Source: a virus. Taken from it: a stretch of 46,602 nt of DNA. Below, in pieces: positions 870-11,017 of this stretch. Both the position numbers and the translations under genes were made by a program. The DNA is taken from UHGV virus genome UHGV-0186543; one strand, written 5' to 3'. The stretch's first letter is position 1. Every line of letters starts with the position of its first letter. Under the pieces are notes generated by a model that had not been told where the DNA came from, searched no databases, and saw only the letters and a list, made by a program, of their open reading frames with translations.

Positions 870-982
870 TCATCTGGTGGTGAACTGTGCAGGGTTGGCG
901 TAACCGGCTAAGTGAACCCGGCGCTTCCGCAGAAGCCCCCACACAGCCCACCATAATGCGAATGTGGCCGTGCCTAACACAT

Positions 983-1003
983 AAAAAAACCGCTAACGCG
1001 GCT
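983..1003 (-). terminator. putative rho-independent terminator upstream of antirepressor gene
   Basis: plus-strand A-run 983-989 followed by hairpin ACCGCTAACGCGGCT; on the minus strand this is a GC stem followed by a U-run. Confidence 0.45.
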
Positions 1004-1093
1004 ATGCGTCACTTAGATATCCGGGACGCCAATCCCGGCAACCGATTTTGCGGCTGCGCGGAAACTATAGCCCCGGGCTTTTTCTAAGTCAAT

Positions 1094-4110: not shown

Positions 4111-5207
4111 AATGCCCCTTCCCTGGTTTTACGCAGTGTTTCTGGCTTCATCAGGTAATCAAACCCTGCCCGCCAGCCGGTGCGATATTCGCCGCCGAAA
4201 TAGAAGTCTGGGGCGTTATCGCGGAATTTTTCGAAGTAGCCGATAAATGCGCCAAGAGTTTGCGTGCGCATATGTGCCAGCAGGCGCAGGATTGCCCGAC
4301 GGCGGTCAGTATCAATTTCAGCTATAGGTAGCAGGTCGCCCAGAATCTCGTTGTAGCCCTTCACAACTTCAGCAGGGTCAACGGCAGCCTCAGCAGTGGC
4401 CCACGTCTCAGCGTCAGCCAGGTATCCGTCAAACCGGTTTACGCGGCAAATGTTCGCAGGTTTCGGAACGCTTCCGCTACGACGGCGCCATGTCGCAATA
4501 ACCCAACGAATTACTAACTGAATCTCAGCCACGCTGTAACCAGCGCGGGTGGTGGTGGCAGTTAGCAGCATGACAAACGGTTTAACGTCGCGGCAGCGGG
4601 TACCGACTTTCTCGTTGTAGTAGTTCAGAGCTTTTTGAGCGTCAGCGAGAATGATTTCCTCGCCCTCCCCCTTTTGGGGGTAAGGGGGATCTTTTATCTC
4701 TGTAGTACTCTCTGTTGTATTCTCTGTAAGAGATTGGGTCATTTTGACCTTAGCGCATGGGTCAACTTGACCTGATGCTTGGGTCACATTGACCTCTTCG
4801 ATTGGGTCAACTTGACCTAATCGATTGGCCACAGGGAATGTTGTCTCTTCAATCTTACATAACTGGGCATAATTGATTGAATACCACTTGGTTTTATCCC
4901 AGGCATCACTGTTAAAGTTCCCAGTAAATACCACATTCAATTTTTCCAGATTGGCCAGCACGCGTTTTATTGTCGACTCGCTCCAGAACGGGAATTGTTC
5001 TTGCCAATCGGTCACACTGTTGTACACCCAGTGGCGATTTTCGAAGAAATTTTGAGATGAATTCAGCCAGTAGTGGATTTGCTGTAGAACGATGGCTTCA
5101 TTCAACCCTATAGTGCATGCCAACGTGGGCAGGACCTGAAGGGGGTTTTCGTTAATCAGCAAACGACTCATACTCAGATCTCCAGAGCTTCGGCTATCTG
5201 ACGACAA
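4107..5207 (-). CDS. replication initiation protein (lambda O-like); probable true start at 5171
   Basis: 366-aa ORF directly upstream of the DnaB-like gene; contains the iteron array in its coding sequence (encoding repeated GQVDP peptide) as in lambda O; second Met at 5171 sits 2 nt after the stop of the upstream ORF. Confidence 0.7.
   Translation of the reverse strand: MSSDSRSSGDLSMSRLLINENPLQVLPTLACTIGLNEAIVLQQIHYWLNSSQNFFENRHWVYNSVTDWQEQFPFWSESTIKRVLANLEKLNVVFTGNFNSDAWDKTKWYSINYAQLCKIEETTFPVANRLGQVDPIEEVNVTQASGQVDPCAKVKMTQSLTENTTESTTEIKDPPYPQKGEGEEIILADAQKALNYYNEKVGTRCRDVKPFVMLLTATTTRAGYSVAEIQLVIRWVIATWRRRSGSVPKPANICRVNRFDGYLADAETWATAEAAVDPAEVVKGYNEILGDLLPIAEIDTDRRRAILRLLAHMRTQTLGAFIGYFEKFRDNAPDFYFGGEYRTGWRAGFDYLMKPETLRKTREGAL
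4735..4817. repeat. origin iterons: four copies of palindromic TGGGTCA-N4-TGACC at ~22-23 bp spacing, with adjacent AT-rich stretch (4691-4733)
   Basis: TGGGTCATTTTGACC (4735-4749), TGGGTCAACTTGACC (4758-4772), TGGGTCACATTGACC (4780-4794), TGGGTCAACTTGACC (4803-4817) seen directly; location inside the initiator gene matches lambdoid ori architecture. Confidence 0.7.
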
Positions 5208-5398
5208 CCGGCTTCATAGTCCGCATTGCTCAGCCCTTTGTCGCGCAACTCGACCTTCCTGGATTCATACTGCTCCCACACCGAAAGCGCGGCAGCCATA
5301 CGCCCATCAAAAATAGGTTGGATCTCTGCAACATGTGCCGGGCGTCCATTCAGGTGCCAGCCGTTACGCCAGGTAATGCGGTCAATATGTCTTAACAT
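5174..5398 (-). CDS. hypothetical small protein between cII-like gene and initiator
   Basis: 74-aa ORF; stop immediately precedes the 5171 start of the initiator. Confidence 0.4.
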   Translation of the reverse strand: MLRHIDRITWRNGWHLNGRPAHVAEIQPIFDGRMAAALSVWEQYESRKVELRDKGLSNADYEAGCRQIAEALEI

Positions 5399-5437
5399 CG
5401 GTCTTTCCTCGGTATAAGTTAAACGCTGGTCAGGCGC

Positions 5438-5973: not shown

Positions 5974-6171
5974 CTAAGCTTTTTCATGTTTTGGAACATC
6001 GTAAAAAGTCGGGTCATATTTCAGTGCTCCGTTAGTGATATGGTCGAGTCGAGCAGCTCGCTTTTCAGGAACTGTTGCCCCCCAACGAGTAACCGCCACT
6101 TGAGATATACCCAGCACCTTGGCTGTGGCTGTCTTTGAACCAAAAAAACTAATAACCGTCTCTGTTTTCAT
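5974..6171 (-). CDS. Cro-like transcriptional regulator (YdaS/Cro family HTH)
   Basis: 65-aa ORF with HTH (TAKVLGISQVAVTRW), divergent from the repressor gene across an operator-containing intergenic region. Confidence 0.7.
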   Translation of the reverse strand: MKTETVISFFGSKTATAKVLGISQVAVTRWGATVPEKRAARLDHITNGALKYDPTFYDVPKHEKA

Positions 6172-6239: not shown

Positions 6240-6653
6240 ATGAGGATGAAGAATTTGATGCTTAGCGACCGTTTATCTCAAAGACGCAAACAGCTTGGTC
6301 TAACCCAACAACAGCTTGCTGATATGGTTGGAAGATCGAGTGTGAGCGTTTTTAAATGGGAAAGCGGACAAAATGAACCAAAGGGTCAGAACTTGCTGGC
6401 TTTGGCCAATGCACTTAAGTGTTCTGCCACATGGCTGCTTTTTGGTGACGAAGACCAGGCACCAACTCCGGTAGACGAATTACCAACAGAGCTGGATTCA
6501 CGTCAAAAAAGATTGTTAGAGTTATTTGATTCATTACCCGAGTCAGAAAAAGAAAAGCAACTAATTGAATTAGAAGATAAAGTTGAAAACTTTAATCGTT
6601 TATTTGAAGAGTTACTGGTTACCAGAAAGAAACTAACCCCCACCAAAAAATAA
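6240..6653 (+). CDS. CI-like phage repressor (XRE-family HTH)
   Basis: 137-aa ORF with N-terminal HTH (LTQQQLADMVGRSSVSVFKWESG); divergent from cro-like gene; alternative start at Met7 (6258). Confidence 0.75.
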   Translation: MRMKNLMLSDRLSQRRKQLGLTQQQLADMVGRSSVSVFKWESGQNEPKGQNLLALANALKCSATWLLFGDEDQAPTPVDELPTELDSRQKRLLELFDSLPESEKEKQLIELEDKVENFNRLFEELLVTRKKLTPTKK

Positions 6654-6656
6654 AAT

Positions 6657-6692
6657 AAAGGCAATGTTTTCAATGCATTGCCTTTATTTTTA
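6657..6692 (+). terminator. rho-independent terminator after repressor gene
   Basis: stem AAAGGCAATG / CATTGCCTTT followed by TTTATTTTT. Confidence 0.6.
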
Positions 6693-6702
6693 CCCCAAAT
6701 AC

Positions 6703-6749
6703 TAACCTTTGTTATAAAACGCCTTGCACATAAAATTACCTTTAGTTAT
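6703..6749 (+). promoter_or_regulatory. pL-like promoter with left operators: TAACCTTTGTTA (6703-6714) and TTACCTTTAGTTA (6736-6748); -35 TTGTTA (6709-6714), -10 TAAAAT (6731-6736)
   Basis: same TAAC-N4-GTTA operator family as the right operator region, overlapping sigma70-like hexamers. Confidence 0.5.
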
Positions 6750-7430
6750 ATTCATTCCATCAACAACGCTTACCCAGCGGCAGTTGTTCAGAAACAAGTT
6801 CTGACAGCCGGAAAGACGGCACCAAATTTTGCGCGTCGGCGCCAACACGATGACAGAGGGAAAGACTTCACCGGCATATGGCACATGTGTCGAAGCGGTC
6901 TGGATGGAAGCGGAGCCTTAACGCGTTGTCTCCATAGCAGGTAGCCGGAATGTGCAAGCCACAGCCAGGTATGAGCGATTGATTCACCATCAAGGCGATA
7001 CGGTGTGACCACCAGGGAAGAGTCCTGGCTACAACACGAGAGCGCACTTCATCGACTCAACTTTGAGCTTTGTCGTTAAATTTTGAAATGGCGGAGTGCG
7101 CTCCCGGTTGTGGTGAACAGGTGTTTAACGGGAACTCCCTGCCCGTTACCCGGTTCGATTCCGGGCGCTACACCGTAATTATTGGGACCCTCTGGTGAAA
7201 GCCAGAGCCTCTCGCAGAGAGGCGCAACGAGGAAAGACCGGGCATGACCAGCCCTGACAGCCGGAAAGACGGCACCCTTTAGATGGCAAAAGACCCGCAC
7301 AAGGCGGGCCAGTTACCCCGAACGGCGACCAAACCATTCGGATATGGTGCAAGGGACCAACCTTACACCGAGGAAAGACCAACGACAGAGCCGCTGATCG
7401 GTTCTGAGTATACCCCACCAAGGAGTCGCT

Positions 7431-7751
7431 ATGGAAGCGCGCACCATCCCAGTAACACTCTTTATTAATTATGCAACTTCAACTTTCAGCCACGAAAAGC
7501 TGCTTGTTGCGACTGTTGATATGTCAAAAAATTTTCCAGACAGGTACATCCTTCTGGAAAGCCGCGAAATTGAAATTACCGTCAACCAGCCCCAGCCAAT
7601 CGACATCATCGGTTTACAGGTCGAGCAACTGCGTGAACAAAAACAGAAAACAGTCGCCGAAGCCCAACAGCGTATTGCTGCTATCGATGACAAAATCCAG
7701 CAGTTACTTTGCATCGAATACACGCCAGATACTGATGAAATCCCCTACTAA
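7431..7751 (+). CDS. hypothetical early-left protein
   Basis: 106-aa ORF with strong SD (AAGGAG) 7 nt upstream; first sizeable ORF of the leftward operon. Confidence 0.5.
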   Translation: MEARTIPVTLFINYATSTFSHEKLLVATVDMSKNFPDRYILLESREIEITVNQPQPIDIIGLQVEQLREQKQKTVAEAQQRIAAIDDKIQQLLCIEYTPDTDEIPY

Positions 7752-7781
7752 AGACCACTGACCTGTAATGAGGAAAGACCA

Positions 7782-9995
7782 ATGACCATTTTTAACGGCT
7801 TGTTAGAAGCGAAAAAAGGCGCGCTCAAAAACGGCGCGATCCCGGCGCTGGCCATCGCCATCGACGCCCCTAACAAAAAAGTTGCCGAGAACATCATCAT
7901 CGGCAAATTGTGGGAAGCCTACCCTGACCACGGCGACAACTATTTCAAACCTAAAATCTGGGAAGATGCCCCGGGCCAACCGCGCCCAGGCGTTGGTGAG
8001 TTTGATGAGACGTTCGCCACAGAACACAGTTTTGATGGCGAAAAATGGGTAGTTAACACCCCCGTTGTAGATAGCGGTTCAGCAGATATCGCACAGGTTA
8101 ACGACCTGATGAAACTGCCGGCTCGTGAACGATTCGCCGCCGTTCTGCTGTTCAGCCACGACGCCAACGAAGTCGACAGTGAATTGCTTGCGCAGACGCG
8201 TGAATACCTGGAGATGCTCGACAACAGTGATACTGACAGTGAGGATGAGGTTGACGCATTTAACCGCATCGTTCTTGATGCCATGGTGGCGTGTAAGCCC
8301 ATCGAGTACATGCATATTGCTGGATTGAATAATCTGGTACATGCAATTTTGGCAAGTTGCGATACCCAGGAACAAAACCCGACCAGTTGGACTATCTCCA
8401 AATTTATAAAAAAATGGGTAGAGAATCCCGGTAAACGCGATGAAATGCTGCCGGAGGTAAAACCAGAAACAGCATCCGCACGTCCTTACCAACAGACTCA
8501 CGCCACACTGGATCGTGAAATTGCCTGCGCCCTGTTACCCGTTGGCCCGGAAAAAATCACCCCCAGCGTCCTGAAAGCGGCAGACGAAATAATCAGCCAG
8601 GATCGGGAGGATTTTAAACGCTGGTCAATGGCCTTGCGCACAACGGATCAGATCCTTGCCTATGACCGCGCATCAGTATTCGGTGTTATTCAGAGCGCCC
8701 CCGCAAAAGACACGTACCACTTCCCACAATCCCTGCGCAGTCACATCGACAACTGGCTGCAAGCTAACGGGCAGCGTGATGCAAATGCTGTTGAAGAGAA
8801 GCCAAAGGAAGCAGCACCAAAGGATGATGTAAAAGTCACCAACCACGGCGGCGGACGATTCTCAATTGATGGGATGATGTCAGAAACACCCTCAAATCAT
8901 GGCGAAAAAAGCGAAGCTGCAAATGCTGGAGAACGTAGTTTGCAGCAGTTGCGTGAGCGGTTTGTCACGCCTCGCCATGTGTATGACGTACCTGAAAATA
9001 ACGCCGTCTCACAGAGGGAACCTACAGCTATTACCCCGGCAGAAGAGACTCCTCCACAAGAAAAACTTAGCGAGCAGGTAAAGGATCTGGTGCAGAACGT
9101 TGACGCGCTGGTTGAGCGGATCCATACCGAAGAGCACAAGCGGCAGAATGCAATCTCAGCTATCGAAACGGAGTTAAAGGACTCCGACGACACAGATAAC
9201 CTGGCATTGTGGAAGAACGTATTCAAAACCGATGAGCGCTTCACCAGTGCTTTCTCTCAGAACGGCGGCGGCACATCCATCAACGGCACTTATATAGCGA
9301 TGAAAGCGACTCGCGAATTTGGGCCGTTTGGTATTGGCTGGGGTGTAGAGGTGGTGGAAGAGCGTTTTGATAAAGGCGCACCGATAGTTCGCAAAAAACA
9401 GGTTGGTGAAAAAATAGAATGGGATCTGATTCAAGACGGTGTTGGCGGGTACCTATGTGAAATGCACCACACCATGAAAGTTAGAGTCTGGTACATATTG
9501 AATGGAGTGCGCGGTGAGTCCGAGGCTTACGGATGCACACCTTATATCTACGACACTAAATACGGACCAACAAGCGACGGCGAAGCGCCGAAGAAATCCT
9601 GGACGGATGCTGTTAAGAAAGCGCTATCCCCTCTCGGATTCAGCGCCGATATTTTCATGGGCCTGTACGACAATCCGGAATACCGCCAGAGGAATAAAGC
9701 TGAGTTTGATATCAAGAATGCCAGCGAGAATGCGGAAGATGCTACCCGTCTGCGTAAGGAACTGGATGAGAAGCTTATCAACGTTGCCAATACGCTGGCC
9801 TCCGCGGTAACCACTAACGAAGTAAACAAGGTATTTGGCCTCATCGCCCGCGAAGTGGATGTACACCGAAAAGCAGCAGAAGCCAAAGGCGATAAAGAAT
9901 ATTCATCGTATCTGGGATCGCGCCTGCGCCGTATCACCGACATCAAAACTGAACGCCTCGCCGCCCTCACCGCTGCACAGGAGCAAACCGCATGA
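7782..9995 (+). CDS. large protein with C-terminal Rad52/Sak-like single-strand annealing domain and long acidic N-terminal extension
   Basis: 737-aa ORF; C-terminal segments REFGPFGIGWGVEV and KKSWTDAVKKALSPLGFSADIFMGLYD parallel Rad52 N-domain motifs (NEMFGYNGW; KEAVTDGLKRAL..FG) recalled from memory; preceded by conserved TAATGAGGAAAGACC translation-initiation element. Confidence 0.55.
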   Translation: MTIFNGLLEAKKGALKNGAIPALAIAIDAPNKKVAENIIIGKLWEAYPDHGDNYFKPKIWEDAPGQPRPGVGEFDETFATEHSFDGEKWVVNTPVVDSGSADIAQVNDLMKLPARERFAAVLLFSHDANEVDSELLAQTREYLEMLDNSDTDSEDEVDAFNRIVLDAMVACKPIEYMHIAGLNNLVHAILASCDTQEQNPTSWTISKFIKKWVENPGKRDEMLPEVKPETASARPYQQTHATLDREIACALLPVGPEKITPSVLKAADEIISQDREDFKRWSMALRTTDQILAYDRASVFGVIQSAPAKDTYHFPQSLRSHIDNWLQANGQRDANAVEEKPKEAAPKDDVKVTNHGGGRFSIDGMMSETPSNHGEKSEAANAGERSLQQLRERFVTPRHVYDVPENNAVSQREPTAITPAEETPPQEKLSEQVKDLVQNVDALVERIHTEEHKRQNAISAIETELKDSDDTDNLALWKNVFKTDERFTSAFSQNGGGTSINGTYIAMKATREFGPFGIGWGVEVVEERFDKGAPIVRKKQVGEKIEWDLIQDGVGGYLCEMHHTMKVRVWYILNGVRGESEAYGCTPYIYDTKYGPTSDGEAPKKSWTDAVKKALSPLGFSADIFMGLYDNPEYRQRNKAEFDIKNASENAEDATRLRKELDEKLINVANTLASAVTTNEVNKVFGLIAREVDVHRKAAEAKGDKEYSSYLGSRLRRITDIKTERLAALTAAQEQTA

Positions 9996-10792: not shown

Positions 10793-11017
10793 ATGCTGCG
10801 ATGGCAACCGGGAGCAACTCTGCTCTCCGCATTTGATATCAAAATTGGCCGACTGTCGGCCAGCGTCAGGAAACAGGCTGTGACCGAGTCTGATATTGCC
10901 CGTGCCTGCAAGGCGGCAGATGACGCAATAAGCTACATAATGAGGAAAGACCATGAGAAGCGATCACGACATAATCACCAGAGAAGAAATGGTCGAGCTG
11001 ACGGGAAGCCCACTTAA
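10793..11017 (+). CDS. hypothetical small protein (start set at ATG 10793 rather than the TTG at 10763)
   Basis: ATG preceded by CGGAGGA SD; overlaps the following ORF by about 65 nt, so one of the two may be spurious. Confidence 0.3.
   Translation: MLRWQPGATLLSAFDIKIGRLSASVRKQAVTESDIARACKAADDAISYIMRKDHEKRSRHNHQRRNGRADGKPT

Follow-up and report, generated by a model that had tools for sequence, protein, structure and literature searches.

The window analysed here is the whole of the virus genome UHGV-0186543, a stretch of 46,602 nucleotides, and our subject is the long leader that occupies positions 6750-7430 of its plus strand, between a pL-like promoter and the first gene of an early operon, in the immunity region of a lambdoid-type prophage. 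A preliminary description of this stretch had drawn attention to the length of the leader and to its hairpins and repeats. Our main finding is larger: the leader consists of non-coding modules whose RNA structure is under selection, and its major component, designated here the core, belongs to a widespread unannotated RNA family that temperate phages of Enterobacterales place, with accompanying modules, at the beginning of their early transcripts.

Upstream of the leader, a cI-like repressor gene (6240-6653, plus strand; Pfam HTH_3, 1.4e-14) diverges from a P22_Cro-like (cro-like) gene (5974-6171, minus strand), and a YdaT-like gene likewise runs leftwards. The repressor gene ends in a plus-strand terminator (6652-6691), able to work in either direction and made of a 15-nt perfect inverted repeat (6652-6666/6676-6690) followed by TTTTT. 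Downstream of it the leader begins, at a sigma-70-like, pL-like promoter (6724-6752, plus strand) composed of TTGCAC (6724-6729), a 17-nt spacer and TATATT (6747-6752); a promoter scan places the site at 6725-6752, and transcription would start near 6759-6761. From the promoter, about 670 nt (671 nt as folded) without a conserved open reading frame (ORF) extend to the ORF at 7431, in agreement with the distance of about 680 nt given earlier. This ORF belongs to the first conserved gene of the operon (7420-7751, plus strand, ORF from 7431, Shine-Dalgarno AAGGAG), which encodes an acidic protein of 106 amino acids and unknown function (phrog_2479). Genes for a RecE-like exonuclease, Gp157, an excisionase and an integrase follow, and the operon starting at 7431 is the counterpart of the lambda pL operon. 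The absence of an N-like antiterminator gene, claimed in the preliminary description, holds: no arginine-rich or N-like ORF was found in the early region of the window.

The leader is partly C-rich, and its whole-length fold (-244 kcal/mol) is more stable than those of shuffled sequences (-221 +/- 8.3 kcal/mol; z = -2.8). Sequence identity to it is 94-98% across 449 E. coli chromosomes and 78% in phage vB_SmeS_BUCT708 (hereafter BUCT708); five versions, those of the window, Z0117, SE11, TUM13936 and BUCT708, were aligned. In BUCT708 and in Pectobacterium phage ZF40, homology runs from CATCAACAACG onwards, that is, over the transcribed part, despite differing promoter and operator sequences. 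Small ORFs within the leader lose their start codons in relatives and are therefore not conserved genes. One is the 12-codon mini-ORF (7244-7282) previously singled out for its strong Shine-Dalgarno sequence. It is indeed present behind a ribosome-binding-site (RBS) cassette, GAGGAAAGACC, that is common to real early genes (cassette and ORF, 7229-7282, plus strand), but it is not conserved, its ATG (7244) being CTG in Z0117, SE11, TUM13936 and BUCT708. The ATG of the other, a 61-amino-acid ORF (7283-7468), is ATA in the E. coli relatives. Coding potential of the leader was rejected on these losses of ATG and on alignment indels that are not multiples of three. The initial picture of a long, non-coding and structured leader stands.

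The cassette itself, (CC)GAGGAAAGACC(N)ATG, is shared by early genes of both divergent operons, at 7770-7786 and 10942-10955 on the plus strand and at 5398-5410 and 2680-2692 on the minus strand, and relics of it lie in the leader at 7229-7246 and 7370-7386. The second relic (plus strand, GAGGAAAGACCAACGAC) is 94% identical to the cassette at 7770-7786 and lacks a start codon, with ACG in the window where BUCT708 has ATG; we regard it as the remnant of a gene start.

The largest and most conserved element of the leader is the core RNA (6871-7031, plus strand). It is 160 nt long and comprises five helices, from P1 (6872-6892) to P5 (7012-7028), and a pseudoknot joining the P4 loop (CACC) to GGUG; at 6941-6960 plus one base lies the invariant segment GGUAGCCGGAAUGUGCAAGCC. 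Its covariance model, R1, has a sole match in the window, at 6871-7031 (135.1 bits, E = 1.4e-42). The model of P1 to P5 with the pseudoknot was tested on two alignments. In the first, built with MAFFT from 32 diverse members, 96.8% of the cells are paired compared to 29-48% in slid controls, both partners have changed in 11 pairs, and none of 500 shuffles attains the observed values of pairing and covariation. The second, model-based, holds 67 distinct core sequences, the divergent set included: 96.9% of the cells are paired (31-42% in slid controls), changes on both sides affect 15 pairs and 197 cells, a level again attained by none of 500 shuffles, and the covariation score is 0.360 compared to 0.172 in shuffles. 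The lower six pairs of the local P1 hairpin covary, and the pseudoknot shows one compensatory change, from UCACC/GGUG to UAACC/GGUU, in two sequences of the MAFFT alignment. As several pairs are G.U in most members, the plus strand is the RNA strand. Compensatory changes around invariant unpaired segments, the wide spread of the element and its fixed strand argue for selection for a specific fold, and not for a merely stable hairpin. The core is a real conserved structured RNA and a member of an unannotated family. The preliminary description was thus right about the structure of the leader, which is conserved and covarying, but had overlooked its largest and most conserved element; the covariation across homologous phages that it proposed to examine is found in the core and also in the stems of the repeats discussed below.

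Other contacts and likenesses were considered for the core. A long-range pairing of the P1 loop, GCACAU/AUGUGC, proposed by RNAalifold, is neither supported nor excluded, both sides being invariant and the rare variants unpaired singletons. A kissing contact between the loops of P2 and P5 shows no consistent covariation by eye. A resemblance of the leader to RNase P RNA, in segments such as GGAAAGUCC and GGUAAGAGCGCAC, was dropped because cmscan gives no RNase P match even at E <= 10. More generally, no relevant match of the core or the leader to an Rfam 15 family was obtained at gathering or permissive thresholds, either in the window or in phage SPN1S; within 6600-7500, the best score (28 bits, for a threshold of 55 bits) falls on the cI terminator. 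Hence neither a known Rfam element nor an N gene accounts for the region, an eventuality that had been envisaged at the outset.

Hits above the Rfam gathering threshold in the window are confined to 873-1070 on the minus strand, with isrK at 983-1057 (80 bits), C4 antisense RNA at 873-958 (74.5 bits) and the a1/b1 targets of C4 (c4-a1b1) at 1018-1070. This region is an RNA-based immunity module of the P1/P7/P4 type, carried by the same prophage.

The core is shared by otherwise unrelated phages. A distant BLAST search found the segment 6872-7043 in Uetakevirus (SPN1S, Tyrion), P1-like (SJ46, D6), Lastavirus (SopranoGao) and Klebsiella phages, always in unannotated DNA. The invariant 20-mer GTAGCCGGAATGTGCAAGCC is present in at least 120 IMG/VR contigs, and a pattern for the 3' part adds 66 contigs that lack the exact 20-mer, giving at least 186 viral contigs with a core. 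With a 174-nt query, the core was found in 695 of the 5426 complete E. coli genomes (about one in eight, ~13%), at 498 chromosomal and 218 plasmid sites, not one of which is annotated. A pattern for the 5' part matched 22 species genomes, distributed among Kosakonia, Phytobacter, Escherichia, Citrobacter, Klebsiella, Kluyvera, Enterobacter, Superficieibacter, Pseudescherichia and Candidatus Erwinia, plus one short contig from a metagenome-assembled genome labelled Bacillota; seven pattern matches outside this 22-species set are not genuine core members. The family carries no RefSeq annotation. Literature searches returned nothing relevant on the sequences of the core or of module M (a long hairpin described below), or on cis antiterminator RNAs in prophages; full-text searches with the sequences were empty, and the core element is not covered in the preprints on the Pas sRNA and Minerva.

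Placement of the core was surveyed at 144 loci with the exact 20-mer. At 66 of these, a cI-type repressor gene lies on the same strand at most 2.5 kb upstream, early-left genes lie downstream, or both; 40 are near a Uetakevirus-type portal gene, and the other 38 include P1-like loci and short contigs. The five lambdoid loci that we inspected in detail present the layout of the window, with cro and cII-like genes, cI, promoter, a non-coding leader of 0.6-1 kb that opens with the core, and early-left genes. In several groups the core begins ~10-50 nt from a -10 element flanked by operator-like palindromes. 'Mini-core' variants (L169 8740-9060, L203 5507-5656) retain only the 3' half, with P3, P4, the pseudoknot and P5, directly behind a TTGACA-17-TAATAT promoter; that of L169 is followed by M and then by the RBS of the first ORF, with no terminator between. 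Across the family no terminator is found immediately after the core, which is therefore always part of a longer transcript. Farther downstream, strict sense-strand terminators occur within 1.5 kb in 49 of 109 distinct regions, the nearest of them clustering ~220 or 400-470 nt past the core, and the mean number of terminators is 0.64 on the sense strand compared to 0.37 on the antisense strand.

At six loci (L015, L023, L043, L111, L116 and L120), a hairpin and then GCTCTTTA occur ~120-130 nt past the 20-mer of the core, and in L043, L116 and L120 the latter extends to the full rrn-type boxA TGCTCTTTAACAA. The L043 hairpin doubles as the terminator of a convergent 152-amino-acid ORF; a duplicate of the promoter cassette occurs further along this locus.

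An element at the start of transcripts that precedes varied genes is in the position of an aptamer, and one may ask whether the core works as a self-cleaving ribozyme or as a riboswitch-like sensor, tuning early expression to a host metabolite or signal. Its size (~160 nt), five helices, at least one pseudoknot and long invariant unpaired segments such as GGUAGCCGGAAUGUGCAAGCC are compatible with such a role, as is the alternative pairing of the top of P1 with AUGUGC. We nevertheless hold it to be quite unlikely: the alternative pairing shows no covariation, only unpaired singletons; no expression platform adjoins the core, P5 being followed by M, an RBS or an ORF depending on the locus; the downstream genes have no common metabolic theme; and no known ribozyme or riboswitch model matches.

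On the 5' side of the core and again in the distal leader lie the three TGACAG repeats, two of them identical over 23 bp, that had first been noticed in this region. They were recovered with the motif TGACAG-NN-GGAAAGAC-NN-CACC at 6802-6823, 6851-6872 and 7255-7276, for 0.02 expected from shuffles, and copies 1 and 3 are identical across 23 nt (6801-6823 and 7254-7276). Each folds into a 4-bp stem with a GAAAGA loop (-7.7, -3.7 and -7.7 kcal/mol for copies 1, 2 and 3). All three hairpins are on the plus strand: copy 1 (6801-6823) reads CUGACA, GCCG-GAAAGA-CGGC, ACC; copy 2 (6850-6872), which abuts the core, reads AUGACA, GAGG-GAAAGA-CUUC, ACC; and copy 3 (7254-7276) repeats the 23 nt of copy 1. 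The repeats are conserved in related phages, and their stems change by compensation or paired insertion between copies and between phages. In BUCT708, copy 1 is GCCCG-GAAAGA-CGGGC and copy 3 is GCCGG-GAAAGA-CCGGC, both with a paired insertion, while copy 2 in BUCT708 and TUM13936 is GCGG-GAAAGA-CUGC, where an A-U pair has become C-G. Copy 2 is kept in every close relative, each time immediately 5' of the core. In SE11 and TUM13936 a moron is inserted where copy 1 would stand. These morons (0.65-0.8 kb; L128 1650-2190 in E. coli SE11, L129 1650-2360 in TUM13936) hold a single small ORF or a pair of them, of which TUM13936 has one in antisense orientation, and leave copy 2 and the core intact.

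When all fetched loci were scanned for hairpins with a GAAAGA loop, ~40 had a UGAC(A/G) 5' flank; at loci with a core, they share its strand and lie at most ~450 nt from it. Some UGACA hairpins directly precede M (CUGACA-GCCUG-GAAAGA-CAGGC-AC-ACAAC), and P5, at the end of the core, holds the equivalent position (GUGUGACA-CCUCG-GAAGAGA-CGAGG-AU-GCAAC). Since UGACA hairpins occupy the position of P5 before M, the repeats are additional copies of the terminal motif of the core, made of UGACA, a covarying stem and a GAAAGA or GAAGAGA loop.

These hairpins had been called boxB-like. They are real RNA hairpins with compensatory stems, but they are not parts of classical nut sites, which would come with boxA, N and a pR-side copy: boxA (CGCTCTTA or GCTCTTTA) is absent from 6750-7430, the nearest plus-strand matches being at 2187, 24409 and 40618. 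They could still be nut-like sites for an unrecognised phage or host protein, acting in antitermination or translational control, with the core as a scaffold for P5. Four copies of the motif stand in the leader, P5 included, all with a conserved UGACA and purine loop and with stems that covary, and the P5 loop begins with GAAGA, the loop of the lambda nutL boxB. In addition, the loop sequence GGAAAGAC occurs in the early-gene RBS cassettes of both operons, with 10 copies in the window for 1.4 expected, always along the direction of transcription; it is identical, not complementary, to the loop side of the repeated hairpins, so one factor could bind both. We consider this very unlikely all the same. 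The leader lacks boxA, no arginine-rich or N-like ORF was found, the pR operon has no copy, the loops are 6-7 nt long and not GNRA-like pentaloops, and the motif is common to phages with unrelated early proteins (ZF40 gp09 compared to the 106-amino-acid protein of the window).

Directly after the core stands module M (7030-7112, plus strand), a long interrupted hairpin of ~22 bp (-33.5 kcal/mol, z = -4.9) and a candidate RNase III site. Its architecture combines an outer helix, ACAAC/GUUGU, an inner 11-bp helix, GAGCGCACUUC/GGAGUGCGCUC, and a variable interior. Across loci the flanks ACAAC...GUUGUGG enclose 114 distinct complementary versions of a 9-bp helix, and the interiors are hypervariable, 25-100 nt long. 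In the window, a complementarity of the M interior (7067-7077) with 7381-7391 was set aside, being unconserved in relatives. M is also present in lambda (NC_001416 ~44789-44865; L161 990-1066), where the record confirms its place immediately after tR', with the sequence CACAACAGGTAAGAGCATTG...CAGTGCTCTTTCCGTTGTG and with orf-64 annotated over part of that region. There it is followed by long-loop hairpins ending in CUUUUACACA (CTTTTACACA), which by eye resemble elements of the pL leader. The lambda late leader is transcribed by antiterminated polymerase. Its processing by RNase III has reportedly been described (Daniels et al. 1988). With its ~22 bp, flanks and inner helix shared with lambda and its covariation, the M of the window is of the lambda late-leader type and would correspond to the RNase III site of that leader.

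A small tRNA-like element (7120-7174, plus strand) comes next, with an anticodon-arm-like hairpin, a T-arm and a closing helix, GGUGU/ACACC, and without a D-arm. Its T-arm-like hairpin, CCCGG-TTCGATT-CCGGG (7149-7165, plus strand), which folds and fits the T-arm consensus, is the one noted in the preliminary description, and is now seen to be part of an element that also exists in ZF40. The element is not a tRNA gene: ARAGORN finds no tRNA or transfer-messenger RNA (tmRNA) gene in the window, and the Rfam tRNA-Sec model scores 17.2 bits for a threshold of 47. Early leaders carry it in ZF40 (L131 1490-1560) and L237 (2120-2200) as well as in the window, and the versions of ZF40 and L237 are 85.7% identical to that of the window. 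The closing helix is TAGCG/CGCUA in ZF40 and GGUGU/ACACC in the window type; two alternative 3' junctions straight after the T-arm suggest a recombination point. In SPN1S, a genuine tRNA-Arg starts at the GUUGUG boundary, at a place equivalent to that of the tRNA-like element of the window.

Smaller hairpins, all on the plus strand, complete the leader. The whole-leader fold opens with a 5'-terminal stem-loop, AACAAC...GUUGUU (6762-6788); in BUCT708 the pairing is kept with a G.U pair (AACGAC/GUUGUU), and in ZF40 the 5' CAACAGCG could, by eye, pair with CGCUGUU ~130 nt downstream. A small hairpin, GCGC-GUCG-GCGC (6831-6842), is compensated in relatives (UCGG-GUCG-CCGA). Three conserved distal hairpins lie at 7294-7308, 7318-7341 and 7346-7369 (z = -2.5, -2.8 and -3.3); the last two have GACCAA within their loops, and the stem at 7346-7369 covaries (GGUGCAAGG/CCUUACACC, AUCACAAGU/ACUUGUGAU, CCGUAGGG/CCCUACGG).

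The main rival to the cis-acting reading favoured below, in our view a doubtful one, is that the leader is mainly a cluster of RNA genes with trans-acting products, transcribed before anything else once the prophage is induced or a cell is infected. Cleavage by RNase E, by RNase III within M and by RNase P at the tRNA or its mimic would yield stable RNAs, namely the core, the variable M interiors and the tRNAs or mimics. Such products would affect the host, for instance by serving as decoys or sponges that occupy its nucleases or defence proteins, or by regulation. Lambdoid, Uetakevirus and P1-like phages, three unrelated lineages, all have the core in company with a tRNA gene or a tRNA-like element. 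In Uetakevirus it is a unit of its own, with an operator-like promoter and oriented against its neighbours; in SPN1S this unit runs from the operator-like promoter through the core, M and tRNA-Arg to terminators and small ORFs. Conserved flanks around a hypervariable interior make M look like a scaffold for variable cargo, and first sense terminators at fixed distances would delimit discrete RNAs of ~300-600 nt. Precedents exist: the P4 CI RNA and the P1 C4 RNA are excised from operon leaders by RNase P, and the large prophage RNAs GOLLD and ROOL adjoin tRNAs. Against such products speak the lack of a terminator directly 3' of the core, the position of the core directly before a protein gene in many loci, and the failure to identify a target or partner, the sole complementarity (7067-7077/7381-7391) being unconserved.

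A more modest view, which we judge unlikely, makes the leader a mosaic of processing or stability cassettes and recombination leftovers that only shape mRNA ends. The modules are indeed shuffled between loci: M can precede or follow the core, some leaders have acquired morons, some promoter cassettes occur in duplicate, and the tRNA-like element is found with either of two 3' junctions. The leader also contains RBS cassettes that lack a start codon, M resembles phage RNase III sites, and processing by RNase III has been reported for the lambda late leader. What this view leaves aside is the core, where compensatory change, invariant unpaired segments, wide distribution and fixed strand point to selection of a specific fold.

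Termination in the leader bears more directly on function. Two contiguous hairpins already listed in the preliminary description were confirmed by folding at 7190-7207 and 7208-7222 (plus strand; -19.9 kcal/mol, z = -2.5), as were the other hairpins and repeats on its list, all of them present, at positions within 1-2 nt of those first given. In the window these two abut and lack a U-run. At the same place in the alignment, relatives have an intrinsic terminator, GCCCA..TGGGC-CATTTTTT or GCCCGGG..CCCGGGC-ATTTTTTT; in BUCT708 it reads GCCCGGG-CGC-CCCGGGC-AT7 (4417-4433) and in Z0117 GTCCG..TGGGC-CAT6 (2054-2068). No promoter-like site was found between this terminator and the first gene in BUCT708 or Z0117, so in these close relatives transcription of the operon has to pass an intrinsic terminator within the leader itself, which lends indirect support to antitermination. 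The junction of the window type recurs in L231, L134 and L239 and is therefore a natural variant.

We tentatively favour the reading that the leader is a cis-acting antitermination or anti-Rho RNA, which would follow the logic of HK022 put with an unrelated RNA. It draws on the covarying core, its promoter-proximal position, the terminators of the relatives and those downstream of the core across the family, the lack of an N-like ORF and the parallel with lambda M. On this reading the region is the stretch that the early leftward (pL-type) operon transcribes but does not translate ahead of its first gene, made up of conserved RNA modules. Transcription from ~6760 would produce in turn the 5' stem, two UGACA hairpins, the 160-nt core ending in the same motif, the 22-bp M, the tRNA-like element and further hairpins before reaching the first gene. 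The core and the hairpins with UGACA and a GAARAGA loop would act in cis on the transcribing polymerase, alone or with host factors, and the polymerase would then escape Rho-dependent and intrinsic termination in and beyond this long, partly C-rich stretch of untranslated RNA. The genes for recombination, excision and integration would in this way be expressed without an N protein. M (through RNase III) and the tRNA-like element (through RNase P) may serve as processing points that trim the leader.

Several observations weigh against this proposal. The leader of the window variant has no intrinsic terminator, so that antitermination of intrinsic terminators is unnecessary there. ZF40 has one UGACA hairpin in its pL leader and no core, which makes it ambiguous which part of the leader would be active. 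HK022 possesses putL and putR, whereas the core belongs to the leftward operon only: model R1 finds no second copy on the pR side of the window, and the UGACA motif is confined to the plus strand of the leader, without a pR-side copy in the window. Homology with put is not apparent either, as blastn-short gave chance-level matches only, the put regions as read show no similarity, and R1 has no match in the HK022 early region. Finally, such a function is less obvious at some locations of the core, namely in Uetakevirus genomes, where it sits between structural genes in a unit with tRNA-Arg, and in P1-like plasmids, where it lies between a tRNA (tRNA-Met in SJ46) and ban; and some copies stand within duplicated promoter cassettes that face a convergent gene.

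It is possible, though we are in some doubt, that the core and the UGACA motif together constitute an undescribed class of RNA opening early transcripts, which would be either a second protein-independent solution to processive antitermination, unrelated in structure to HK022 put, or the scaffold of a large modular RNA hub acting on the host; in the latter case, the core, the variable M cargo and the tRNAs would be made first after induction. Either way, if true, an abundant functional RNA has gone unannotated in ~13% of complete E. coli genomes, ST131 included. The family is absent from Rfam and RefSeq, yet it is found in hundreds of genomes of E. coli, Klebsiella, Citrobacter, Salmonella phages and P1-like plasmids, and the phages that host it carry recombination, integration and moron genes in clinically important lineages. 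Read-through of early operons in lambdoid phages without N has been explained for one small group only, that of HK022 put; the leader described here offers a concrete and widespread candidate for a further explanation.

Among known systems, HK022 put is the closest in logic. Both are cis RNAs, or proposed as such, situated just past the early promoter of a phage without an N gene, a promoter-proximal position that is confirmed here; both have terminators downstream (here in close relatives of the prophage); and no phage protein enters the proposed model. They differ in build, since the core has ~160 nt, five helices and a pseudoknot compared to ~70 nt and two stems for put, and the core also occurs outside lambdoid early operons. 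The longest exact match with HK022 is of 16 nt, AACAACGCTTACCCAG-like, between 6764-6779 of the window and L127 2638-2653; it lies in an unannotated ORF of the rightward operon, read as cII-like, and is probably due to chance (E = 0.002 in a small search).

The lambda nutL/N leader has the same map position, after cI and pL, and likewise combines short hairpins, whose purine-rich loops begin with GAA, with a long RNase III-type hairpin further along. Unlike it, the present leader has no boxA, N gene or nutR counterpart. The hairpin itself is fourfold here, has its own conserved 5' flank, UGACA, and covarying stems of 4-5 bp; its loops, GAAAGA (6 nt) or GAAGAGA (7 nt), start like that of lambda boxB, which has a 5-bp stem and a GNRA-like pentaloop, but they are longer. 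With respect to riboswitches, the fold is aptamer-like, but what comes after P5 varies from locus to locus, and an expression platform common to them was not seen; the RfaH/ops element GGCGGTAGnnTG is absent from the leader at up to one mismatch.

With the P4 CI RNA and the P1/P7 C4 RNA, the leader has in common the siting of a regulatory RNA within an operon leader and tRNA-like processing signals, and an element of the C4/isrK type exists elsewhere in the window (873-1070). It differs from them in having no Rfam match and no complementary target repeats that we could find. GOLLD and ROOL are, like this family, long, ornate and modular non-coding RNAs of prophages, often beside tRNA genes and of unknown function; the present family shows no similarity to their Rfam models, has Enterobacterales hosts and also serves as the leader of a protein-coding operon.

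The lambda late leader after tR', finally, shares module M. Its flanks, ACAACAGGUAAGAGCAUUG...CAGUGCUCUUUCCGUUGUG, match those of many loci, and the window has a covarying version. By eye, a 1.8-kb lambda stretch, on which the core model was not run, holds no invariant motifs of the core. The lambda leader is late and Q-dependent, whereas here M comes directly after the core in an early leftward leader. A conserved hairpin of the lambda late leader that had never been explained now joins a broader set of modules.

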